Assembly: GCA_048940445.1 (NCBI GenBank)
Contig: JBHLON010000056.1
Coordinates: 1 to 15,554 of the forward strand
DNA length: 15,554 bases
Direction: 5' to 3'
Origin: Promethearchaeota archaeon
GTDB taxonomy: Archaea; Asgardarchaeota; Lokiarchaeia; Sigyniarchaeales; SOKP01
Positions within the stretch are counted from its first letter, which is position 1. Every line of letters starts with the position of its first letter. Below are positions 3,099 through 15,554 of this stretch, piece by piece. The translations under genes were made by a program, and so were the position numbers. The notes below the pieces were generated by a model that made no database searches, had not been told where the DNA came from, and worked only from the letters and a program-made list of their open reading frames with translations.

Positions 3099-3536
3099 AT
3101 GAAATATTTTAATTTAACACTTAAAATAATCCGGATGAAAAAAGAAGTATATTACCCATTATTTTCAATTTTAGGTACCTTTTTAATATATTGGCTTTTC
3201 ATACTAGCTTTTAATTTTATGAATAGTCAAATTGTCTTTCCTTTTATATTTTTAATTTTAGCTATTATTTTATTTACCTATTGTCTTGATCTACATCTCA
3301 TAATTGAGAATATTAATAATCCTACTTTAAAAAAAGTATTTTTTACTTTACTTTTAGTATCAATTATTATTATATCGAGTATGATAATTTGGTTAATTCT
3401 TTTGATCATTAATAATATTTATTACATTATTCCTATAACGATTCATATAATAATTTCAATTCTAATTTATTATATTCTCAAAAGAGAAGTTATTAAATAT
3501 TATGATATGAAAGCACATAATATTAATAAAAGTTAA
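3099..3536 (+). CDS. Hypothetical membrane protein (about 4 TM)
   Basis: 145-aa ORF, Ile/Leu/Phe rich, closely spaced between co-oriented neighbours. The start may be the ATG at 3135. Confidence 0.7.
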   Translation: MKYFNLTLKIIRMKKEVYYPLFSILGTFLIYWLFILAFNFMNSQIVFPFIFLILAIILFTYCLDLHLIIENINNPTLKKVFFTLLLVSIIIISSMIIWLILLIINNIYYIIPITIHIIISILIYYILKREVIKYYDMKAHNINKS

Positions 3537-3574: not shown

Positions 3575-4519
3575 ATGCTATTAAAAAAATTAAAGCTTCT
3601 TAAGCAAAATCAAGAACGTTATTATTTAATTTATATTCTTTCTATTTCAATTATAACAATTGTTTTAATAATTCTTAGAATTCTTTTTTATTTCTTCAAA
3701 GAAGAACTATCAGGATTATTCTTCTTTGATTTATTAATAAAAAATCGAGATCTAAATTTTAAAACAAATTACAATCTAATGTATAATGGATTAATTCATT
3801 ATTATGAAGGTAATATTCTAATAAATGAAAATGCTATTTATCTTTACTTTTGGTACTTCATTTTTTACCCTTTTTACAATATACCTCTCAATGTCTCAAT
3901 GTACGTTTGGGACATTTTAAGATTTATTTCAACAATTTATATTGCAATTAATATAAAAAGAATAAGTCAGAATAGGAGAGAACTACTTTACTTTTTTCTT
4001 CTTTCGGGCGTTGGATACTTTTCAGATATGTATTTGAATAATACAAATTGGCTTATTCAATTACTTTTATTTAATTCTTATATTCAATTGAAAAAAGGTA
4101 ATAAATTGTTCTCAGGGATTTTGTTCAGTATTTCTACATTTAAGATAATCCTAATTCTATTTCCTCTAATCTTATTAATAGTTAAAAGAATTAAATTGGC
4201 GGATTTGATTTACTACTACTTACCTTTCGTTATTATAAATATTCCTTATATGATCTTCCCCGAATATTTTTTACAAATGATTTCAAATTGGTTCCAAAGC
4301 GTGAGCCTCTCATTTTCCCTTATCAGTCTTTTCCTTAACATTTGGCGCTTAATTCAGCCCGCCCAGTTAATGTATATAAGTATTATTATTCTTATTATCA
4401 TCGAAAATATAAAAAATAAGGAAAAAAAAAATAAAATTAGTTTTCTCATTTATACAATTGTTTTTATTTTATGGATTTTAATTTGGATAAGCATTTTAGA
4501 AATTGCATTTTTTTTATAA
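3575..4519 (+). CDS. Multipass membrane protein, divergent GT87 (DUF2029)/GT-C-like glycosyltransferase
   Basis: First TM followed by a loop containing an Asp (RDLNF), then YLYFWYFIFYPF (cf. YxYPP...P), DMYLNNTN (cf. GQ/GN motif) and SGILFSISTFK (cf. G...K). Motif order matches GT87-like proteins but similarity is weak. Confidence 0.5.
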   Translation: MLLKKLKLLKQNQERYYLIYILSISIITIVLIILRILFYFFKEELSGLFFFDLLIKNRDLNFKTNYNLMYNGLIHYYEGNILINENAIYLYFWYFIFYPFYNIPLNVSMYVWDILRFISTIYIAINIKRISQNRRELLYFFLLSGVGYFSDMYLNNTNWLIQLLLFNSYIQLKKGNKLFSGILFSISTFKIILILFPLILLIVKRIKLADLIYYYLPFVIINIPYMIFPEYFLQMISNWFQSVSLSFSLISLFLNIWRLIQPAQLMYISIIILIIIENIKNKEKKNKISFLIYTIVFILWILIWISILEIAFFL

Positions 4520-4524
4520 CGAGT

Positions 4525-4935
4525 TTAACCATTTTCATACTGCATGAACAAAATTAAGATATATGATGCAATGATGAATAACATAGTAACAAAGCTATAA
4601 GATGGAGCGAAGCAAGCAAATCCAAATATTCTGACTAAAAACCAAGAATTAATAATAGTACCGATAAGTAGCGATAAAAGTATTGTATACTTATACCATA
4701 TATTTATTTTTTCGAATTTCAAAATAATAACAACAGAAAATAAAAGTAATATAATTCTGATAAACTCAAGGCCTATTAATAATGCGTAAAGTATGAATAA
4801 TAAGTCTTGACTTATAGAAATTATCCCATTTATCAAAGATATTAGAATAACATTGATTAAGAATAAAAGTATTGATATGATGATATTTATGATAATTAGT
4901 TTGAGGATTAATTCATATTTGTAGTTTCTATCCAT
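4525..4935 (-). CDS. Hypothetical membrane protein (about 4 TM)
   Basis: 136-aa hydrophobic ORF filling the gap, convergent with the GT-C-like gene (5 nt between stop codons). Confidence 0.7.
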   Translation of the reverse strand: MDRNYKYELILKLIIINIIISILLFLINVILISLINGIISISQDLLFILYALLIGLEFIRIILLLFSVVIILKFEKINIWYKYTILLSLLIGTIINSWFLVRIFGFACFAPSYSFVTMLFIIASYILILFMQYENG

Positions 4936-5060: not shown

Positions 5061-5702
5061 ATGTCTGGAGAAGATATAGTTTGTGATAAGTGTGGTAAGT
5101 TAACTAAAAGAGATAATGCATATTGTATTCATTGCGGTGCTTATTTAGGAACTCATGAAAAAACACCTTCAGAGGCACCAAAACCAAGTTTTGTTAGTGC
5201 TAAACCACCAAAAACTAAGAAAAAGCTTAACATTGGTTATAAAATATTAATATTCTTTAGCGTAGTTATAGCTGTCAATTTTTTAGTTTCATATTTTGTA
5301 ATGCTAGGGTTTCAGTTGCCTCCAAGTGGTTATTTTCCAGTATTTGGCGGAATGCTCATTTTAGTACTTATAATTGGAGGTGTGATCTGGGGTGCTGCTA
5401 GTTCAGGTAGTATTGATGTGGGTGATATGGAGGGTTGTGGGTATGCGATAGGAATAATTATAGCAATTGTAATAGGTGTTCCAATTTATATTTTTACTGT
5501 TTTAGGATCAATAGTACAAGCGATAGCTCAGTCAATTGGAAATGCAATCAATGATGCGATTAACAGCATGTTTTCCCAACTATTCTCAGGTATTGAAATC
5601 CCCGGTTTTGAGCCACTTTTATTTTTTGGTCTTTTTATGTTATTATCGTTTCTTATTGTATATTCCTATCATCTGAAAGTAAAGAAAATAAAAAAATCAT
5701 AA
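5061..5702 (+). CDS. Zinc-ribbon membrane protein with C-terminal PGF/Loki-CTERM-type sorting signal
   Basis: N-terminal CDKC-x10-CIHC, Pro/Lys linker, three TM segments, then IPGF (aa 180-183, nt 5598-5609) + hydrophobic helix + basic tail KVKKIKKS. Confidence 0.85.
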   Translation: MSGEDIVCDKCGKLTKRDNAYCIHCGAYLGTHEKTPSEAPKPSFVSAKPPKTKKKLNIGYKILIFFSVVIAVNFLVSYFVMLGFQLPPSGYFPVFGGMLILVLIIGGVIWGAASSGSIDVGDMEGCGYAIGIIIAIVIGVPIYIFTVLGSIVQAIAQSIGNAINDAINSMFSQLFSGIEIPGFEPLLFFGLFMLLSFLIVYSYHLKVKKIKKS

Positions 5703-5749: not shown

Positions 5750-6448
5750 GTGAAGCAAAGTCAAAATTACCAGTATAATTCTCAAAGATTAATATTTAAT
5801 TTTAAGGATAAAAAATATACCTTTTCTTTTTCCCAAATTCTAATTTTCCTCGTAGTCAGTCCTTTACTATCAATTCTAATCTATTTATTTCTTAAGTTAA
5901 GAATTAATTATTGGATATATAACCTTACATCTGCTCAGATAGTACTCATCCTAAATGCATTATTTAATCTAAATTCGGAGGTAATTATATCTTCAAATCT
6001 TTCCATATTCCCTTCGATTTTTATACCTAATAATCCTTTTAATGAAAACTATGCGATTACTGCTAATTGTATTGCAGCTCCTGTTTTTAGTATCATGATT
6101 TCAATTATAATTTGCATACCATCATCTAAATTACTATTAGAAAAAAAAGAATTTGTATGGAGAAAAGTAAAAGCTTTAATTGTTTCAATAGGTGGCATCT
6201 ATGTTCTTAATATTTTTCGAATTGTTTTTCTGATCTTTTTTAATTTTAACGGAATTCCATTTGAATTCATTCATGAATCTCTTTTCTTTTTATCTGCTGT
6301 TATTGGTGCTTTATATTTTGTAATCATACTTAAACTATGGTTACCAGAATCCTTTATTTCGATTTATTATTTTTATCGCTTAATTGTAAAAAAGTGGAAA
6401 ACTCGTGGAAGTTTTCAAAAAGAAAACGATAATATAATAAGATATTGA
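5750..6448 (+). CDS. Archaeosortase/exosortase family protein (archaeosortase H-like, divergent)
   Basis: Multipass protein with the family Cys-Arg-His triad in canonical order and context: ITANC107, LN154IFR157IV, FEFIH175. It also has the P...WRK segment between the helices. GTG start uncertain. Confidence 0.85.
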   Translation: MKQSQNYQYNSQRLIFNFKDKKYTFSFSQILIFLVVSPLLSILIYLFLKLRINYWIYNLTSAQIVLILNALFNLNSEVIISSNLSIFPSIFIPNNPFNENYAITANCIAAPVFSIMISIIICIPSSKLLLEKKEFVWRKVKALIVSIGGIYVLNIFRIVFLIFFNFNGIPFEFIHESLFFLSAVIGALYFVIILKLWLPESFISIYYFYRLIVKKWKTRGSFQKENDNIIRY

Positions 6449-6501: not shown

Positions 6502-7299
6502 TTATTTTCTAAAATGATTTATAGCTACAATTATGATTCCAATGATAATTATAATCATCGCTATCAGTGCAGTTATAGCAATTGTTAGATTTAATGGAAG
6601 TTGTTTTAAAAGTATGCCTAGGGAAGCCCACACCACAACAAGACTATAAGCAATATCTTTTCTGAGAAGCAACATTAATAATGTTATTATTACTACAATA
6701 GCAATTACTACAATAGTTAAAATTATTGCTAATAAACTTGGGAAAGTTACTCCATTTGGGACTCCGAAGGTTACTAATAAAGCAGTGACATTTGCAATAG
6801 TGGCAACAGTGATCCATCCAAGATATACGCTAAATGGAATATGTACTGTCCATTTTTCAATTTTTGAAACATCAGCTTTACCAATATTTAATCTAAGGTA
6901 AATCAAGAGTAACATTATCAATATTACCAACATAGCTCCCAGAGATAATGGAATAAGTTGATAATGCCAGAATAAGATCCATGTAAGATTGGCTAAATTA
7001 CTGATAATGAAGAAAACGCTAATCTTTTCTAAATAAGGCATCTCAACCTTATCTGACTTAAAGATGTCTCTAAATTGATATATTGAAAACAAGCCAAGGA
7101 GAATGTATATTATACCCCAGATGGAAAATGTAAGCCCTGCAGGAACGAATAAATTGGGTATAGCATCCGATAGTTCTTGAGTAGTTCCATAACCAAGAGG
7201 TAAACTAATTGCTAAGTAGTTTATAATGACAGCGGCAATAAAAGTACCAAGGTTTAAAATTTGTAGGATTAATTTTGTAGTTTTATTCACATTTTTCAC
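6502..7299 (-). CDS. TspO/MBR-related tryptophan-rich membrane protein (long form)
   Basis: PAGLTFSIWGIIY, NLTWILFW and PFSVYLGWITVATIAN motifs; about 8 TM segments. Confidence 0.8.
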   Translation of the reverse strand: MKNVNKTTKLILQILNLGTFIAAVIINYLAISLPLGYGTTQELSDAIPNLFVPAGLTFSIWGIIYILLGLFSIYQFRDIFKSDKVEMPYLEKISVFFIISNLANLTWILFWHYQLIPLSLGAMLVILIMLLLIYLRLNIGKADVSKIEKWTVHIPFSVYLGWITVATIANVTALLVTFGVPNGVTFPSLLAIILTIVVIAIVVIITLLMLLLRKDIAYSLVVVWASLGILLKQLPLNLTIAITALIAMIIIIIGIIIVAINHFRK

Positions 7300-7555: not shown

Positions 7556-8470
7556 ATGAAGATTGACTTAATTTCTGACAATAAAGTGATTATCACTGCT
7601 GCTATAACGGGAGGTATCCATGGAAAATGGGCAAATCCAAATTTACCTATCACTGCAGAAGAACAAGCTCAAGATGCATTTGAATGTTATAAAGCAGGAG
7701 CTTCTATAGTGCATATTCATGTGAGGGGAGAAGATGGTCAGAATACACCTGATCTGAAATATTACAATCAAACAATTAATTTGATAGAAGAAAAATGTCC
7801 TATCATTAGACAAATAGGGAATGGAATAGGTGCTTGGTTAGAAACAACCAAGAGAACGCTGAAATCTGGAAGAAAGCTAGTTCATTCAGAAATTGTACAA
7901 CCTACCCTTGAAGATCGCCTCAATTTATTAAAGATTAATCCGCCCCCTGAAATGCACACTATCAATGCAGGAACGTTTCAGTTTCGAACTCCTTATGGAA
8001 GTGCAACTTTTGAAAATCCTATTGAATTCAATAGAAAATATATTAATAGGTGTAAAAAGAAGGGATTTGGGATTGAGATTGAAGTCTATGATTCAAGTCA
8101 CATAGCTAATGTTATGGAACTGGTTGAGGAAGGATATCTAATACCGCCTTTACATTTTAGTATTGTATTAGGTATTAAAGGTGGGGCACCTGCTACAATA
8201 GAAAACCTATTAAATTTAGTTCATCAAATTCCAGAAGGATCAACATGGCAAGTCGTCACAGTAGGTAAGTTCAACCTTCGAACAACCCTAATAGCAATGA
8301 GTATGGGAGCGAATGTACGAACTGGATTAGAAGATACTATTTATTATCAGAAAGGAGAATTAGTGCAAAGTAATGCTCAATTAGTTGAAAGAATGGTTCG
8401 ATTAGCCAAGGAAATAGGAAGAGAACCCGCTAATGTAGATGAAGCAAAGGAAATCTTAAAATTAAGCTAA
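7556..8470 (+). CDS. BKACE / DUF849 beta-keto acid cleavage family enzyme (3-keto-5-aminohexanoate cleavage protein-like)
   Basis: IITAAITGG, NPNLPIT, AGASIVHIHVR (Zn-binding HxH), EIEVYD, RTGLED, SNAQLV, GREPA motifs. Confidence 0.95.
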   Translation: MKIDLISDNKVIITAAITGGIHGKWANPNLPITAEEQAQDAFECYKAGASIVHIHVRGEDGQNTPDLKYYNQTINLIEEKCPIIRQIGNGIGAWLETTKRTLKSGRKLVHSEIVQPTLEDRLNLLKINPPPEMHTINAGTFQFRTPYGSATFENPIEFNRKYINRCKKKGFGIEIEVYDSSHIANVMELVEEGYLIPPLHFSIVLGIKGGAPATIENLLNLVHQIPEGSTWQVVTVGKFNLRTTLIAMSMGANVRTGLEDTIYYQKGELVQSNAQLVERMVRLAKEIGREPANVDEAKEILKLS

Positions 8471-8502
8471 AAAAAATAAAAAAAAGAAATATTAATATTA
8501 AG

Positions 8503-9951
8503 TTAAGCTAACTCAGGATGTTTTTTTAGTTCTTCTCTCATTTTTTCGAGTTTTTCTCCGTGTAAATCGTAAAATTTAAAGAATAAAATTGAACCTACAA
8601 GCGCTATTGATGGAAATACAAACATTAACGATTTCAAAGCAATTTGAATTAAAAGGGGATCAGTGGGAATAGGCGTATATGAACTCCAACCGGTTCCTGC
8701 AAATAAGGGAGCAATGGTACTAATTCCTAGAATCATTGAAAAGCGATGGATGAATGCATTAACACCATAGTAACTTGCTGCCCTTTTAACTCCGAATTTA
8801 AGCGCGTCCTGGTCAATTACATCTCCATGAATTAGATCTACAAAAAAGAGAGCTGCAGATAGTCCAAAGCCCACCGTAGCAAAGATTACCAAGGATAGCG
8901 TTCTGCTTAAGTCATTATTAGATAAAAAGACTAATGGAAATAGAGTTATAATCCATATTCCCATTCCAAGTATGATCCCTTTACGCGTACCTAGTTTCTT
9001 CCTGATTTTTGATTGAAGAGGCATAAATATGGCAGCAGATAAGAGGGCTATCATTAATGTAACTCCAATCAAAAAAGCACCCTTATCTCTACCGAGCACA
9101 AAAACCGAATAAAGAGGAAATACTGTTAATAAAATATTAAAACAATACCAAATAAGCATGTTTCCAAAAGTAAACTTAATAAACGTTCTATTGGAAAAAG
9201 TTATTTTTAAAGATTCAAAGAATTTCGGTCGTTTCTCAAAGTCGCTGATATCTTCTTCTTTTTCTTTCACGCCTGCAAAAATGAATACTGCTGCTATAAT
9301 TGCTATTAATATACATAAAGTTATACCTGCAAGTATGTATTGAAATCGAATTTTAGAAACTTGTTCTATAAAACCAAGAGGAGAATCTTCATAACTAATC
9401 GTAGGAACTAAAGGAGATATAATAATAGTTGGGACAATTGAAGCCAATATAACAGCGATCATTGTAAACATTTTTGTAAATACATTTACATCTCCTCTCT
9501 GTTTTTCTGTAGGGAACATCTCAGGAAATATAGAGTTCATATTTACTGAAAACATTGTATAAAATAACTCAAATGTAAAGATTACCGCTAAAAAGTACCA
9601 GAACTCAACATCAAACGTAGAAATACTCAATGGACTTCTTAATGGTACAGTAAAAAGAAAGATCATTATCAATGCTAAAGGGACAAATGAAATTATTAAG
9701 TAAAATTTCCTTTTTCCTAATCTTCCTTTCTGTTTAGTTTTTTCACTTAACGCACCAAGCAACGGATCGTTACACATGTTCCAAATTCCCCATGCAACAT
9801 ATCCAACCCACATTTCAAACGTAGTAAGTCCTACCACAGCAAAGTAAAAAGTAAAGACATAAATTGTGAAAGCTTGATAAGTCATTTGATCTGGAAACGC
9901 ATTCAAGCCAAATAGTATTCTTTCTTTTAAAGGTACTTTTCTTTCACTCAT
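8503..9951 (-). CDS. MFS transporter, glycoside-pentoside-hexuronide (MelB/GPH-like) family
   Basis: About 12 TM; WNMCNDPLLGALSEKT...GKRK, FPE...R and GDVIDQD...KR...YYG motifs typical of GPH symporters. Confidence 0.9.
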   Translation of the reverse strand: MSERKVPLKERILFGLNAFPDQMTYQAFTIYVFTFYFAVVGLTTFEMWVGYVAWGIWNMCNDPLLGALSEKTKQKGRLGKRKFYLIISFVPLALIMIFLFTVPLRSPLSISTFDVEFWYFLAVIFTFELFYTMFSVNMNSIFPEMFPTEKQRGDVNVFTKMFTMIAVILASIVPTIIISPLVPTISYEDSPLGFIEQVSKIRFQYILAGITLCILIAIIAAVFIFAGVKEKEEDISDFEKRPKFFESLKITFSNRTFIKFTFGNMLIWYCFNILLTVFPLYSVFVLGRDKGAFLIGVTLMIALLSAAIFMPLQSKIRKKLGTRKGIILGMGIWIITLFPLVFLSNNDLSRTLSLVIFATVGFGLSAALFFVDLIHGDVIDQDALKFGVKRAASYYGVNAFIHRFSMILGISTIAPLFAGTGWSSYTPIPTDPLLIQIALKSLMFVFPSIALVGSILFFKFYDLHGEKLEKMREELKKHPELA

Positions 9952-10146
9952 TTAAAATCCCTAGTATCGATTTATACTTATATTATATTTTAATTAAATG
10001 TATTTAGATTTTGATCTTTTTAAAACTATAGAAAATTTCACGTAAAACAATATCAAATTTTACAATTTTCATTTAATTGGAACTATATTCTTAAATAATT
10101 ATAAATTATCATTAACGATATTAATAGCAAAAAGACTTGATGAAAT

Positions 10147-10731
10147 ATGACGGATTTAAATATAAATGCTATCTATTTTGAGAGAGGAGGTGCCCAAAAT
10201 ACTGATAGAGCATTGGAAATTGCTAAGAAATATGCAGATCAATTAAATATTAGGGATATTATAGTTGCAAGTACAACAGGAATGACAGCAAATAAGGCTA
10301 TTGAAATATTTAATCCTCAAAAATATAATTTGGTGATAATTACTCACTCATATTACTTTGTTGGAACTAGTAAACGGCAAGAATTTCCAGAAGATCAAAT
10401 CCGTAACTTAAAGGAAAAAGGAGCAAGAATTTTCACTGGAACCCATGCCTTAGCTGGACCAGAAAGAAGTCTTCGCATATCTTTAAAACAATGGGGTCCA
10501 ATTGAAATAATGGCGAAATATTTACGGGAGCAATTTAGTCAAGGTACAAAAGTATGCATTGAGATGGCTGCTATGGCATCAGATGCAGGACTTATTGGAG
10601 ATATAGAAAAAGACATCATTTGTTTAGCCGGAACTGGTCGTGGTGCTGATACAGCATGCTTAATCAAACCAGCAACTACAAGCTTGTTTGATAAATTAAG
10701 AGTAAAAGCAATATTATGCAAACCGCTATAA
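10147..10731 (+). CDS. Pyruvate kinase C-terminal-like domain protein (MTH1675-like), function unknown
   Basis: YFE.GG..NT, VASTTG.TA, HALAG.ERS, QG.KVCIE...MA.DAG, GTGRGADTA and terminal CKP motifs. Confidence 0.9.
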   Translation: MTDLNINAIYFERGGAQNTDRALEIAKKYADQLNIRDIIVASTTGMTANKAIEIFNPQKYNLVIITHSYYFVGTSKRQEFPEDQIRNLKEKGARIFTGTHALAGPERSLRISLKQWGPIEIMAKYLREQFSQGTKVCIEMAAMASDAGLIGDIEKDIICLAGTGRGADTACLIKPATTSLFDKLRVKAILCKPL

Positions 10732-10774
10732 TCAGAAAAATTATTTTGAAAATTATAAAAAAAAGAAAATAAAA

Positions 10775-11962
10775 CTATATAATATCTAATTTTTTTCCTA
10801 CTTTTTCAATAGCGCTTAAAGCCATTGTTAAATCTTCTTTAGTAAGTAACGCATTCATTTGTACTCTAATTCGAGATAATTCTCGTGCAACCATTGGAAA
10901 AACTATTGGTGTTCCATATATATTTTCTTCTTCAAAGAGGATTCTAGCTAGTTCTTGGGCTTTTCCGGGATCGCCAATAATCAAAGGAATGATTGGTGTT
11001 TCAGAGTTTCCCGTATTATATCCCATACTTTGAACCTCTTTTTTAAAATAATCTGTATGCTCCCATACTCTTTTTACATGTTCTGGTTCATTTTCAACAA
11101 CTTCAATAGATGCTTTATTTGCAGCCACAACTCCAGGAGGGTGTGCTGTACTTAAAAGATATGTCCTACTCTTATTCGCACAAAATTCAATTAAGTCCTT
11201 TGAGCCTGCTACAGTACCACCAAAAACACCAAATCCTTTGCTCATGGAACCCCCCTCAACATGAACTTTACCTTGTAGTTTGAAATGAGCTACAATACCC
11301 CTCCCTTCTCCAAGCACTCCTTCTCCATGGCAATCATCAACAAAAATCATGGTTCCGAATTCCTCAGCAACTTTAACAATTTTATCTAAAGGAGCTATGT
11401 CTCCATCCATACTGAAAACGCCATCAGTTATAATGCAAATTCTTCTGGCACCCTCTTTTTCAGCTTCCTTTAATTGTGTTTCTAAATCTGCAATATCACG
11501 ATGTTTATAGATAATTCTTTTAGCTCCAGATAATCTTACTCCATCTATGATAGAACCATGATTTAATTCGTCCGAGACAACAATATCGGGTTTTCCCACT
11601 AACATGGGGATGAGTCCTGAATTTACTGCAAATCCTGTTTGACAAAGAAGCGAAGCTTCAACTTCTTTAAATTCAGCAAACTTTTTTTCAAATTGCTTTG
11701 TTAGATCAAAAGAACCTGCGATGACGGGTACTGCCCCCGCTCCAGCACCGTACTTCTTTGTAGCTTCAATAGAAGCTTGGATAACTTTTGGATGTGTTGC
11801 TAAACCAAGATAATTGTTAGTATTAAGCATTAAAACTTTTTTGCCATCGACAGTAGAATGTGGTTTCGAACCTTCTTCAAGATACCGAATTATCCATTCA
11901 AGATTATTTGCTTTTAACTCAGTCATCTCTTCCTTAAGGAAAGCCTCTGGATCTCTTCTCAT
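10775..11962 (-). CDS. kbl: Glycine C-acetyltransferase (2-amino-3-ketobutyrate CoA ligase; PLP-dependent alpha-oxoamine synthase family)
   Basis: NNYLGLA, SDELNHGSIIDGVRL, DGVFSMDGD, DDCHG, SMSK (PLP lysine), RIRVQM. Adjacency to threonine dehydrogenase favours Kbl over BioF. Confidence 0.88.
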   Translation of the reverse strand: MRRDPEAFLKEEMTELKANNLEWIIRYLEEGSKPHSTVDGKKVLMLNTNNYLGLATHPKVIQASIEATKKYGAGAGAVPVIAGSFDLTKQFEKKFAEFKEVEASLLCQTGFAVNSGLIPMLVGKPDIVVSDELNHGSIIDGVRLSGAKRIIYKHRDIADLETQLKEAEKEGARRICIITDGVFSMDGDIAPLDKIVKVAEEFGTMIFVDDCHGEGVLGEGRGIVAHFKLQGKVHVEGGSMSKGFGVFGGTVAGSKDLIEFCANKSRTYLLSTAHPPGVVAANKASIEVVENEPEHVKRVWEHTDYFKKEVQSMGYNTGNSETPIIPLIIGDPGKAQELARILFEEENIYGTPIVFPMVARELSRIRVQMNALLTKEDLTMALSAIEKVGKKLDII

Positions 11963-12142
11963 AAAATCATCTTTTCACTTTAGATTTATTTCTAAAATTA
12001 ATACTTAAAAGGTATTTAGAAAAGTATATTAGTTTTACCCCTATGAAAAGAAGATTCAATCAAAGAAAAAAAGGCATAAAGCTTTTTTAAAAGATTAGAT
12101 TAAAATTAATACTAAAACTCTTAAATTAAATTGCTGATAGAA

Positions 12143-13090
12143 ATGAGAAAAATTTTAGTAATAGGAGCTGCTGGACAGATAGGATCTGAGCTTGTACCTG
12201 CATTAAGAGAAAAATATGGAAATAATAATGTAATTGCCACAGGAAGGAACACACCCTTACCTAAAATAATAACAGAAAATGGACCGGTTATATATTTAGA
12301 TGCAATTGACAAAGAATTGCTTTCAAAAGCATTGTTTGAGTATGATATTAACACAATTTTTCATATGGCTTCAATTCTCTCCGCTACTGGAGAGAAAATG
12401 CCTCAAGTTGCCTGGAATATAAATATTAATGGATTAATAAATGTGTTAGAAGCAGGAAGAAAATACAATATAGATCGTATAATATGGCCAAGTTCAATTG
12501 CAGCTTTTGGACCTTCCACTCCTAGAGAAAGTACCCCCAATGATACAATTCTCCAACCATCTACTATCTATGGTATTACCAAGGTTACAGGTGAACTTCT
12601 AATAGAATATTATTATAAGAAATATGGATTAGATACTAGATCTATGCGACTTCCTGGAATAATTAGTAGTGAAACACTTCCAGGAGGGGGCACCACTGAC
12701 TATGCTGTTGAAATATTTTATGAGGCGATTAAACATAAAACATATACCTGCTTTCTTAAAGAGGATACAGTTTTACCAATGATGTATATGCCGGATTGTT
12801 TAAAAAGCATGATAGATTTATTAGAGGCCGATTCTTCAAAGCTAAAACGACATGTTTATAATGTAACTGGAATGAGCTTTTCTGCTGGAGAACTTGCGAA
12901 GGAAATTCAAAAATTTCTACCTGAATTTAAGATAAAATATGAACCAGATTTTAGGCAAGAGATAGCAGACTCTTGGCCTCGTACAATTGATGATTCACTA
13001 GCTCGTCAAGAATGGGTTTGGAATCCCAGTTATGACTTAAGCTCCATGACTAAGGATATGATTCAAATATTAAGTAAAAAAATAAAATAA
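12143..13090 (+). CDS. tdh: L-threonine 3-dehydrogenase, extended SDR (GalE-like) type
   Basis: GAAGQIG Rossmann motif, LSATGE, PSSIAAFG, YGITK, PGGGTTDYAV, MMYMPD and RQ.IADSWP motifs. ATG at 12143 preferred over TTG at 12131. Confidence 0.92.
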   Translation: MRKILVIGAAGQIGSELVPALREKYGNNNVIATGRNTPLPKIITENGPVIYLDAIDKELLSKALFEYDINTIFHMASILSATGEKMPQVAWNININGLINVLEAGRKYNIDRIIWPSSIAAFGPSTPRESTPNDTILQPSTIYGITKVTGELLIEYYYKKYGLDTRSMRLPGIISSETLPGGGTTDYAVEIFYEAIKHKTYTCFLKEDTVLPMMYMPDCLKSMIDLLEADSSKLKRHVYNVTGMSFSAGELAKEIQKFLPEFKIKYEPDFRQEIADSWPRTIDDSLARQEWVWNPSYDLSSMTKDMIQILSKKIK

Positions 13091-13109: not shown

Positions 13110-15554
13110 TTATTGGTTCTTTTTTAGTTTGACCCCTATATTATAAGGCGATACTATGAGTTTCTTTTTGATTAATGTATCTAAAGCCTCTAAAACAATA
13201 TCCTTATTTTTTTCATGAATTTGTGCAATTGGAGCCTGTAAACTAAACTCTTTATTTTGTTTGGTTATCGATAATATTACGTTATATAACCGTATCTCCA
13301 TTTTCTTTAATTCACCTGAATTTATAATTGCGTCAACGTAATTTTTATCTTCATTAACATTAAACTTCTTAGCATAGTGAAGAAATAAAAATTGATTTAT
13401 AATAGAAATTATATCATTTTTTATATAGGTGATATTCCCTACAAATGTAATAAATTTCTCACCGTATTGGGAAGTTAAAGCTTTAGTTAGTAAATACAGT
13501 TGTTTTTTAAGCCTTTCAGAGCTTTTTTCCTTTAAAAATAGGAGAAGGCGAAGTGACTCATAATCACAAACAAGCAATTGAAAAATATTAAAATCTAATT
13601 CTATAATATATTTTGAATACTCAGAAAGAGATTCGGTATTTTTATACTTATTAAACTCTTTTTTAATTAGAACTTGACTAAAATTTGTTATTGCTTGAAT
13701 AAATCCTGCTACCATAAAAGAATCATCATCGTTTTCAAAAATTCCTATTTCTTGAGTATATATCGGGAGACCACTCTCTTTTTGGATTAACATCAATGCT
13801 TCGATATTATTAACATCTTTATAAACTTGAATTTTGTCTATTAATTCTGCTTCCTTTTTCCTTCTCTTTGGCAATATAATATAAGATCTTAAACTTAGGA
13901 CTCCTAATACCCCAGCTAGTACAACTAATCCGATTATTATCAATAATGGTAAGAAATTTGGTGATTCGATTTGGTATATTCCAATAATAAATGAAAACGC
14001 TGTAGTTTTATAGATGATATCCTCTTTTGAGACCATTATCTGCATCTGGTAAGTTCCACTACCTTCAGCAGGTAATTTTAACTTTAATTCATAAATCCCA
14101 TTTCCTAATTCATTGAAAAAGTCATTATTATATTTCCAATTATAAGAAACTGTCGCATTTTCAATATAATTTTCAACTCCTTGTTCTGTTATATTCAATC
14201 GTATAGTAATTTGATCCCCAGCGTTTCCATAAATAATATTGTCAAATCCTATCGGTGTTATATGAAATTCAATCTGTTTAACAAAAATTTGAAGAGCAAA
14301 AGTAGTAGTAGTATAATTATTTTGCACAAATCTTAAATAGACATAATTGGGTCCAATTGAAAAAAATGGTGAACTAACAATTATTGATAAATTATACCAA
14401 TAGTCCATAGATTCTGTAAGTTCTATCTCATTTTCACCATTTATGAATGTTATATTTCCGCCGGATAAAAACTGTGCATCAATTTCAGCATAAGCTCTGC
14501 ATGAAAGATTAAATATTTGATTATAAAAGATTTCGAGCAAATAATTTTCTGGGACATTCTGATAATTAATTTGAGTAGTAAGATCTATATTTTGTGCTCG
14601 AATATATAATTGAAAAGCAAAGATTCTAGTACTATAATTTGTTTGTTCAAATCTTAAGAAAATAGTATTTATACCAGAATCAAAATACATCCCGTCTAAA
14701 ACTATGGATTTAGTAAAGTAAGTAGAAGGTGTCTCTGTTAGATTCACCATATAATTGTTGCTTATCAAGGTCATAATCCCCCCAGATAGATATGTGCCTC
14801 CTAAAATAGTGCGGACTCTTGTTGAAATATTGATTTGTTGTTGGAAATAAGCTTCAATTAGAGAATTTTCAAAAATTGGAACTGAGTTAATACTGACTGA
14901 AATATTTACTTCTTTATTATTAATTATAACTATAATATTCTCAAAAGCAGTTTCATAAGAAGCACGCTTAAATGTTATCAAGACGGAGTAATAATCAATA
15001 CTCATGCCCGTAGTATCTAGAGTAATATCAAATTGATTTGATATAGGTGTAATGAAGTAAGAACCTTGCCACAGAACATTGCAATTAGCTCCAGGAATCA
15101 ATTCACCTGAATTTTCATCTGTATAATTTGCCCTTATCTGAACCATAGCACCTTGGTATACTGAAATCAAACTAACATTCACATAAGCGATAGTTGGAAT
15201 GGGATGCACTAAAAGGGTGAGAAATTCATTAGCATCTCCATAGTTTGTCATATTAGCAAAAATTTCAATAGTATAAGATTCAAGATATCCTTGAGTAGGG
15301 ATACTTTCTGTAGAAAAATCTAGTGTATAAGTTCCATTATTGTGATCTGTTACGTTATAAGAATTAAACCAATCAGTTGAGATATTAGCAGGCCATAATA
15401 GAGTTTTAGTAATAGCTCCTCTCACATTTATTCGGCACGAAACAATAGTATTTGCACTCGTTTCAATTACGTTATGGGATAATTCTATCTCTAATGATTG
15501 TGGAATTACTTTTAAATGAATTAAATTATTAATTGTTTGATTTTCATAAAATAA
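13110..15554 (-). CDS. Large single-pass surface protein (5'-truncated): Ig-like beta-rich repeats, TM helix, cytoplasmic longin-like domain and possible winged helix
   Basis: The frame stays open for 43 codons upstream of GTG 15425 to the window edge (LFYENQTINN...CRINV), so the real start is outside. Many N-x-S/T sequons, TM at about 13872-13955 followed by PKRRKK, then LMLIQKESGLPIY...MVAGFIQAITNFS. Confidence 0.85.
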   Translation of the reverse strand, partial: LFYENQTINNLIHLKVIPQSLEIELSHNVIETSANTIVSCRINVRGAITKTLLWPANISTDWFNSYNVTDHNNGTYTLDFSTESIPTQGYLESYTIEIFANMTNYGDANEFLTLLVHPIPTIAYVNVSLISVYQGAMVQIRANYTDENSGELIPGANCNVLWQGSYFITPISNQFDITLDTTGMSIDYYSVLITFKRASYETAFENIIVIINNKEVNISVSINSVPIFENSLIEAYFQQQINISTRVRTILGGTYLSGGIMTLISNNYMVNLTETPSTYFTKSIVLDGMYFDSGINTIFLRFEQTNYSTRIFAFQLYIRAQNIDLTTQINYQNVPENYLLEIFYNQIFNLSCRAYAEIDAQFLSGGNITFINGENEIELTESMDYWYNLSIIVSSPFFSIGPNYVYLRFVQNNYTTTTFALQIFVKQIEFHITPIGFDNIIYGNAGDQITIRLNITEQGVENYIENATVSYNWKYNNDFFNELGNGIYELKLKLPAEGSGTYQMQIMVSKEDIIYKTTAFSFIIGIYQIESPNFLPLLIIIGLVVLAGVLGVLSLRSYIILPKRRKKEAELIDKIQVYKDVNNIEALMLIQKESGLPIYTQEIGIFENDDDSFMVAGFIQAITNFSQVLIKKEFNKYKNTESLSEYSKYIIELDFNIFQLLVCDYESLRLLLFLKEKSSERLKKQLYLLTKALTSQYGEKFITFVGNITYIKNDIISIINQFLFLHYAKKFNVNEDKNYVDAIINSGELKKMEIRLYNVILSITKQNKEFSLQAPIAQIHEKNKDIVLEALDTLIKKKLIVSPYNIGVKLKKNQ
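14274..14915 (-). repeat. Two tandem ~107-aa protein repeats in the ectodomain
   Basis: ENSLIE/ENYLLE, YLSGG/FLSGG (107 aa apart), NLTE/ELTE, F.SG.N...LRFEQTNY/F.IGPN...LRFVQNNY. Confidence 0.8.

Follow-up and report, generated by a model that had tools for sequence, protein, structure and literature searches.

A zinc-ribbon membrane protein with a private PGFEP sorting tail, the probable dedicated substrate of an adjacent archaeosortase in Loki-type Asgard archaea

Sortase, exosortase, archaeosortase, rhombosortase, and myxosortase systems are understood as means for the surface retention of exported proteins (literature including Haft 2023, bioRxiv 10.1101/2023.06.07.544157). A sorting signal is recognized by a C-terminal motif, a hydrophobic helix, and a basic cluster, on a protein that is expected to carry an N-terminal signal peptide; dedicated one-to-one systems appear as consecutive enzyme and target genes, and conserved residues in the tail helix are read as contacts with the intramembrane enzyme (Haft 2023, bioRxiv 10.1101/2023.06.07.544157). 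Here, we describe a locus from a Promethearchaeota archaeon that shows the tripartite C-terminal layout, the conserved signature, and the consecutive genes but not the signal peptide. The window (the whole 15,554-nucleotide stretch of DNA that was analyzed) corresponds to contig C19 in a genome bin of 3.6 Mb and ∼29% G+C. At positions 5061 to 5702 of the plus strand, it encodes a 213-residue membrane protein, P0001, whose gene is followed after 48 bp by that of an archaeosortase. We favor, with some reservation, the reading that P0001 is the single, dedicated, one-to-one substrate of this enzyme, because of the conservation of its tail, synteny, co-occurrence within the genus, the separate clade of the sortase, the lack of a competing substrate, and a passing co-fold of the two proteins. 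The architecture, conservation, co-occurrence, and passing co-fold are direct results of the analysis.

In its tail, P0001 resembles the targets of archaeosortase A (ArtA) in the PGF-CTERM system of Haloferax volcanii, where P-G-F likewise abuts a hydrophobic helix and a basic tail and the polytopic enzyme carries the same Cys/Arg/His residues. By this likeness, the chemistry to be expected here would be removal of the helix with attachment of a lipid. The clients of ArtA, however, are numerous exported glycoproteins with signal peptides, not chromosomally linked to the enzyme, whereas the present system has one multi-pass target, without signal peptide or ectodomain, encoded beside its enzyme. 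The PGF-CTERM model TIGR04126 gave no match to P0001 at an E value of ≤1 and none in the genome. Archaeosortase H (ArtH; NF041736), with its Loki-CTERM targets (NF033507), provides the nearest named sortase model, occurs in the same lineage, and uses a related IPG[YF] signature. It differs in that the sortase described here belongs to a separate clade and is paired one to one rather than one to many; compared with Loki-CTERM, the P0001 tail has extra invariant positions, an E-P following PGF, conserved helix residues, and a Y-x-Y-H element. The JDVT-CTERM/myxosortase system (Haft 2023) shares the arrangement of one target per genome beside its enzyme, as well as conserved tail-helix residues, but its enzyme is CPBP/Rce1-like rather than exosortase-like and its target is expected to have a signal peptide. 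Finally, P0001 resembles generic zinc-ribbon membrane proteins (PF13240, PF13248, and PF12773) in its CxxC...CxxC ribbon, basic linker, and membrane helices. None of the nearest zinc-ribbon clusters from an ESM Atlas search was reported with a sortase signal, and the ribbon is optional in the P0001 family. Each component is thus known, be it the exosortase/archaeosortase family, Loki-CTERM, or the zinc-ribbon membrane proteins. Their union, in which a private sortase clade and a linked GT-C enzyme accompany a cargo-less multi-pass or hairpin target with its own private tail, was not found in the literature searched; papers on archaeosortases in Asgard archaea or Lokiarchaeota and on archaeosortase H yielded no description of the target-sortase pair.

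The features of the pair are the following.

5061 to 5702, plus strand: target gene, encoding P0001, a membrane protein of 213 residues with a zinc ribbon, four helices, and a private PGFEP sorting tail (open reading frame, translation, homologues, 30-sequence alignment)
5076 to 5141, plus strand: predicted cytoplasmic zinc ribbon, residues 6 to 27, with Cys8, Cys11, Cys22, and Cys25 (conserved cysteines, sub-threshold Pfam matches, two short AlphaFold2 strands)
5232 to 5510, plus strand: three membrane helices, residues 58 to 84, 88 to 115, and 125 to 150 (hydropathy, AlphaFold2, near-zero lysine and arginine in the loops)
5511 to 5588, plus strand: acidic amphipathic segment predicted outside the membrane, residues 151 to 176, with four-residue repeats of the A-I-x-N type (hydropathy, helical moment)
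5595 to 5615, plus strand: signature motif E-I-P-G-F-E-P, residues 179 to 185 (invariance, co-fold interface)
5616 to 5699, plus strand: fourth helix, residues 186 to 203, followed by His204 and a Lys-rich tail (helix conservation of 0.75, co-fold contacts)
5750 to 6448, plus strand: private archaeosortase of 232 residues with a GTG start; Cys107 at 6068 to 6070, Arg157 at 6218 to 6220, and His175 at 6272 to 6274 (TIGR04178, invariant residues, synteny)

The first-pass annotation had described the product of the 213-codon open frame at 5061 to 5702 as an atypical sorting-signal protein that is already held in the membrane. Our analysis agrees, with three helices ahead of the motif, no signal peptide, and an exposed part of ∼30 residues outside the membrane (fewer in the mini forms described below). 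The N terminus consists of the polar zinc ribbon, and no hydrophobic segment was found by hydropathy before one that begins near residue 58; because an N-terminal hydrophobic segment is missing, P0001 is taken to lack a signal peptide, and it enters the membrane by internal helices. The four-cysteine ribbon noticed earlier has the pattern CxxC-x10-CxxC, and each of its cysteines is conserved in at least 90% of 30 relatives. Pfam zinc-ribbon models score 16 to 17 bits against P0001, under their cutoffs of 25 to 29, and a precomputed PF13240 match exists for three relatives (P0004 to P0006). A proline- and lysine-rich linker joins the ribbon to the first helix. Kyte-Doolittle peaks lie at residues 62 to 80, 94 to 112, 130 to 148, and 182 to 200, while the AlphaFold2 model built on the 30-sequence alignment has helices at residues 58 to 84, 88 to 115, 125 to 175, and 184 to 212. 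The three transmembrane segments first proposed (residues 60 to 84, 92 to 113, and 128 to 152) are in accord with both. The stretch before the motif, which had been called amphipathic-looking, combines low hydrophobicity (0.1 to 0.5 over residues 149 to 175) with a high helical moment (about 1.8) and is for this reason read as amphipathic rather than as a membrane span. The C-terminal end is likewise as first described: I180-P-G-F183 is followed by a hydrophobic helix and by a tail that starts at His204 and has five lysines in its last eight residues. We note that a mostly conserved single cysteine, Cys126, opens the pre-motif helix on the predicted cytoplasmic side (residues 125 to 127, window positions 5433 to 5441). 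The ESM Atlas search with P0001 returned generic zinc-ribbon membrane clusters only (scores of ≤0.85, under the lead level of 0.9), and a PDB sequence search returned weak zinc-ribbon matches plus weak, chance-level matches to unrelated membrane helices.

Conservation is highest in the tail. Column conservation reaches 0.84 in the motif, the highest value in the protein, and 0.75 in the last helix, with values of 0.40 to 0.64 elsewhere; the conservation profile suggested by the first-pass annotation thus ranks these two regions at the top. P181, G182, F183, and E184 are invariant in 30/30 aligned relatives, as are E179, L187, S196, Y201, and H204 within the same alignment, and P185 is conserved in at least 90%. 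Homologues without PGF at the tail position were looked for among these 30 relatives, and none was found. The conserved positions of the fourth helix are L187, L191, F192, S196, I199, Y201, and Y203, and the layout of motif, helix, and basic tail is common to all relatives.

According to the positive-inside rule, lysine- and arginine-rich parts of a membrane protein stay cytoplasmic. The family mean of lysines plus arginines per sequence falls from 9.4 ahead of the first helix to ∼0 in either loop and is 3.0 in the C-terminal tail, and the segment preceding PGF is acidic. On the strength of this distribution, we infer a topology of four spans with both termini inside and PGF on the outer face. 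This is the arrangement that the first-pass annotation had called sortase competent, with IPGF outside and the Lys tail inside, and odd helix counts agree with it. An even number of spans before the motif was looked for among relatives found by a tail-only profile; every complete representative has 3 or 1, and two apparent counts of 2 proved to be gene calls starting inside the first helix. The single helix of the shortest forms lies 13 to 27 residues from PGF in 4/5 of them (36 in the fifth), and 13 to 27 residues are too few for a further span. More generally, the spacing between the last pre-motif helix and PGF is 13 to 72 residues in membrane-anchored relatives and larger in two representatives that have a small domain at this place. 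One 172-residue representative has no helix before the motif and may be truncated at its N terminus.

The enzyme encoded downstream scores 28.7 bits against the exosortase/archaeosortase model TIGR04178, above the cutoff of 23. Its scores against narrower models are 99.5 bits for ArtH (NF041736), below the 200-bit equivalog cutoff, and 23.3 bits for ArtA (TIGR04125; cutoff, 75). Four clades of Asgard paralogs share residues C107, R138, N154, R157, and H175 without exception, and the sortase looks active because Cys107, Arg157, and His175 are among these. Lysine and arginine clusters occur at residues 49 to 51, at residues 127 to 141, and after residue 213, with none in the loops at 73 to 109 (which ends at Cys107) and 167 to 170 (before His175); judged from this charge distribution, the catalytic residues would face outward. 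The AlphaFold2 model of the sortase has a predicted local distance difference test score (pLDDT) of 80.4 and a predicted template modeling score (pTM) of 0.73. In a tree of the sortases, a single clade (support, 100/98) unites the enzymes encoded next to PGFEP tails, and a long branch separates it from the core type. The genome's other sortase paralog, a 308-residue protein on contig C30 (23600 to 24772; L001:1243-2415), scores 137 bits against ArtH, represents a divergent third type, and has a C-terminal cytoplasmic extension of ∼90 residues. A separate 78-residue two-helix open reading frame precedes its gene. This frame was considered as a second mini-substrate and rejected, since in alignment it corresponds to the N-terminal membrane extension fused to the core sortases of sister genomes (345 to 360 residues).

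Target and sortase are inherited together. In 21/22 other homologue-bearing loci (L004 to L025), the orthologous sortase lies directly downstream of the target on the same strand. Sortases of the high-scoring type (identity of at least 58%) occur within the genus in exactly the eight other target-bearing genomes, and a truncated remnant without target is present in a ninth. A different, longer paralog (30 to 37% identity) occurs in 39/41 genomes of the genus. Full-length or near-full-length homologues of P0001 with unchanged architecture were found in 22/400 sampled genomes of the phylum, this one included, and one further genome has a fragment where a contig ends; such recurrence speaks against a chance occurrence. 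The homologue-bearing genomes fall within the family to which the window belongs, with a single exception from the same order. The homologues carry the source label Promethearchaeota, within the Loki-type Asgard group, and are 45 to 89% identical to P0001 in homologue searches (23 to 89% across the 30 aligned relatives). Their hosts are known solely as sediment and mangrove metagenome bins, and the sequencing runs that contain DNA of the window are likewise sediment and mangrove metagenomes from several studies, with no RNA run among those listed. A tail-only search of one genome for each of 185,579 species retrieved 22 loci, 20 of which have the target-sortase pair; all are labeled as Asgard bins save for one contig filed under a bacterial name. 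This contig (DATKTW010000007.1; L070), assigned to a Nanopelagicaceae bacterium, holds a complete Asgard five-gene cassette and is probably mis-binned. We also note a 146-residue, N-terminally truncated private sortase with no target upstream in genome G271 (contig C85; L062:1867-2304), which is probably the remnant of a decaying cassette.

These results bear on whether P0001 is an ordinary Loki-CTERM substrate of a housekeeping archaeosortase, with its adjacency to the window's sortase incidental. A regular-expression scan of six-frame open reading frames in the genome found 22 other IPG[YF]-helix-basic tails, or 21 after removal of a multi-pass false positive on contig C20. Most of these 21 proteins have 166 to 1,341 residues and ordinary N-terminal signal peptides. 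NF033507 matched 20 tails in the genome above its cutoff of 19.9 bits (23 at an E value of ≤0.1), and these are the same proteins as in the regular-expression set. They presumably constitute a surface proteome served by a housekeeping archaeosortase. The proposal that the P0001 tail is the sole PGF-like tail of the genome was accordingly rejected. The motif of P0001 does resemble that of Loki-CTERM, in which [IV]-P-G-[FY] precedes a residue that is polar or acidic, then a helix and basic tail, and an alignment of Loki-CTERM tails weakly matches the tail of one homologue (18.1 bits; E = 0.0098). NF033507 itself, in contrast, does not match the tail of P0001, either at an E value of ≤0.1 in the genome search or at ≤1 with hmmscan, and a profile of the P0001-type tail found nothing else among the open reading frames of the genome (next best E = 0.05). 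Because neither profile matches the tails of the other, the genome holds a general, cataloged sorting class and one separate private variant. Among 1.84 billion representative proteins, the P0001-type tail occurs in only 20 clusters, all of small proteins (76 to 257 residues). With the adjacency of the target to a private sortase clade and the strictness of their co-occurrence, the last of which largely refutes it, we consider assignment of P0001 to the ordinary Loki-CTERM substrates very improbable. The Loki-CTERM proteins themselves are encoded on contigs C2, C32, C96, C104, and C134 and others (L033 to L052); several exceed 1,000 residues, and three are in tandem on C32.

Structure prediction supports binding of the tail to the private sortase. 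Residues 125 to 213 of P0001 and the sortase, both supplied as alignments, were co-folded in three runs, which gave a median score of 0.65 (0.48, 0.67, and 0.65), compared with 0.00 for the best control. The pass mark is reached by 58/80 solved complexes and by 2/110 mismatched pairs. The runs share at least 79% of their contacts, the pLDDT of the partner is at least 64, and two of the three contain 92 to 94 confident contacts. In the predicted interface, residues 175 to 204 of the target meet sortase residues 99 to 115 (including Cys107), 154, 157, 175, and 179 to 209; the fourth helix touches residues 112 to 115 and 183 to 206, and the tail helix runs parallel to the sortase helix at 171 to 197. 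The first-pass annotation had proposed co-folding to see whether PGF docks at Cys107, and the co-fold passed with target residues 175 to 185, PGF among them, and Cys107 inside the confident interface. A PDB sequence search found no relative of the sortase, so this result does not stem from a remembered structure.

If P0001 is the dedicated substrate of the sortase, the following sequence of events can be envisaged. The zinc ribbon and Lys-rich linker would remain cytoplasmic while three helices insert, placing the short acidic amphipathic segment and E-I-P-G-F-E-P on the outer face, and the fourth helix would bring the Lys-rich tail back to the cytoplasm. Motif and fourth helix would then dock in the private sortase near Cys107, Arg157, and His175. 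By analogy to archaeosortase A of H. volcanii, the sortase may cut at or near PGF and remove the last helix and the tail, and the new C terminus would probably be joined to a membrane lipid or to the product of the neighboring GT-C-type glycosyltransferase. This would yield a membrane-resident protein of three helices, with both ends of its short outer segment tethered to the membrane, that is, a protein-lipid conjugate rather than an anchored ectodomain. With only ∼30 residues exposed, and still fewer in the mini forms, the purpose cannot be to anchor an exported domain. The cleavage, the attached group, and the physiological role are all inferred.

Several observations weigh against a dedicated substrate. 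P0001 lacks the N-terminal signal peptide that is usual for sorting-signal proteins, and its AlphaFold2 model is of modest confidence (pLDDT, 68.8; pTM, 0.39). One genome (G155) encodes two ribbon-bearing target paralogs (254 and 244 residues) that have longer outer segments but no sortase gene beside them. In the present genome, we did not find the core sortase type that is common elsewhere, and only the divergent third type on contig C30 accompanies the private enzyme; the window's sortase may therefore also serve Loki-CTERM proteins here. Furthermore, a stable partner would account for the unusually strong conservation of the last helix and of Y-x-Y-H no less well than a substrate would. 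In that case, P0001 would be a pseudo-substrate that sits uncut in the sortase groove as an adaptor or regulator, e.g., by relaying a cytoplasmic input via the zinc ribbon to the action of the sortase on other proteins. Such a role would be in keeping with conservation of the last helix and cytoplasmic Y-x-Y-H far beyond that of general Loki-CTERM tails, with the extensive co-fold interface, with a minimal outer segment that has no cargo to deliver, and with the failure to find the core sortase type in this genome. However, the sortase retains all catalytic residues, P0001 has the only matching tail in the genome, and the zinc ribbon is absent from several relatives that retain both tail and sortase. 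Loki-CTERM proteins are also equally numerous in complete genomes without the pair (5 to 15 tail hits in four such genomes versus 11 in one with the pair). We therefore regard a stable partner as unlikely, though it is the strongest competitor of the dedicated-substrate reading.

The family also has variants, the smallest of which have little beyond one helix and the tail. Metagenomic mini representatives of 76 to 86 residues consist of the tail and, ahead of it, a short acidic stretch and a single helix that opens with a cysteine cluster, and a 143-residue representative combines zinc ribbon, one helix, and tail. Only two representatives bear a small domain (∼110 residues) before the tail. 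Genome G155, in which the family is expanded (L063:1981-4768, L064:2194-2955, and L065:4828-5559), also contains, besides the two ribbon-bearing paralogs, two tandem target-sortase units in which the targets lack the zinc ribbon and the second sortase is shortened. In genome G250 (contig C30; L061:1750-2954), a sister-clade sortase of 300 residues, 40% identical to that of the window, is convergent with the gene for a 92-residue protein in which a Thr/Pro/Asp-rich linker connects a lone N-terminal hydrophobic segment to the same PGFEP tail. From these sequences, the conserved unit is a predicted membrane hairpin: two helices flank a short acidic segment and E-[IV]-P-G-F-E-P, and the second helix is followed by Y-x-Y-H and a basic tail. 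In P0067, P0068, P0069, and P0070, clusters of three to five cysteines start the pre-motif helix on the predicted cytoplasmic side.

The variants also speak to the possibility, raised by the first-pass annotation, that cleavage is a regulatory or signaling event, with removal of the fourth helix switching the state or location of P0001 or with the released C-terminal Y-x-Y-H helix as the active product. That the tail is the best-conserved part of the protein accords with this idea, as does the fact that P0001 is already embedded in the membrane and needs no anchoring. A cut at PGF, however, would leave three helices in place and would not free the zinc ribbon, and the cassette described below contains a glycosyltransferase and small membrane proteins but no regulator recognizable by Pfam or NCBIfam. 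Since the ribbon, the one evident cytoplasmic module, is dispensable in relatives that keep tail and sortase, signaling centered on it is unlikely to be the core function. We consider regulatory cleavage improbable. The P0001 family retains enzyme, signal, and required topology but has no exported domain; if the tail is cut, the purpose must reside in the membrane-embedded product or in the attached group. The family therefore offers a simple model for what archaeosortases attach and why, in a group of archaea whose envelope and membrane biology bears on the origin of eukaryotic cells.

The pair is part of a conserved cassette of five genes, in the order 145-residue membrane protein, GT87-like glycosyltransferase, 136-residue membrane protein (opposite strand), target, and sortase. 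All five are present in this order in 16/22 loci and are rearranged in two more. The three genes that precede the target are the following.

3099 to 3536, plus strand: conserved 145-residue membrane protein of no known family (upstream of the glycosyltransferase in 16/22 loci, after the sortase in 2 more)
3575 to 4519, plus strand: GT87-like (GT-C type) membrane glycosyltransferase (PF09594 at 24.1 bits, cutoff of 25; synteny)
4525 to 4935, minus strand: conserved 136-residue membrane protein of no known family (between glycosyltransferase and target in about 20 loci)

The GT-C fold class is used for lipid-linked sugar transfer, and the P0001 family is co-inherited with a member of it. Except for a single copy at a contig end, the orthologue of the glycosyltransferase (58 to 65% identity) is restricted to genomes of the genus that bear the pair; a paralog at 35 to 42% identity is widespread. 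No relative of the enzyme was found in a PDB sequence search. The 136-residue protein has no Pfam or NCBIfam match, and the ESM Atlas returned for it only generic zinc-ribbon membrane clusters (score of ≤0.89, under the lead level of 0.9). An extension of the dedicated-substrate reading, which we offer as speculation with a small chance of being right, is that the cassette conjugates protein to lipid or glycolipid and that this conjugate is its end product. The private archaeosortase would turn a membrane hairpin (one or three helices, a short acidic segment, and the tail) into a peptide stapled to the outer leaflet, and the co-inherited GT-C-type glycosyltransferase would make or decorate the acceptor. 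If true, this would amount to a logic like that of glycosylphosphatidylinositol anchors in Asgard archaea, without a cargo domain, perhaps for shaping or marking the membrane.

The remainder of the window is occupied by the following features.

6502 to 7299, minus strand: 265-residue multi-pass membrane protein with no family match (position conserved only in the two closest loci, L073 and L075)
13110 to 15554, minus strand: large protein running off the window end, with an outer region, one membrane helix, and a cytoplasmic domain of ∼280 residues (no significant Pfam or NCBIfam match)
3 to 308, 418 to 2501, and 7556 to 13090: ordinary metabolic neighbors (family matches)

Because its position is conserved only in L073 and L075, the gene at 6502 to 7299 probably does not belong to the cassette. 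The metabolic neighbors include the N terminus of an Fpg-type DNA glycosylase, an enolase-superfamily enzyme, an alpha/beta hydrolase, a beta-keto acid cleavage enzyme, an MFS_2 transporter, and a protein with a pyruvate-kinase C-terminal-like domain. Also among them, a class I/II aminotransferase-fold enzyme adjoins a protein of the NAD-dependent epimerase/dehydratase family.

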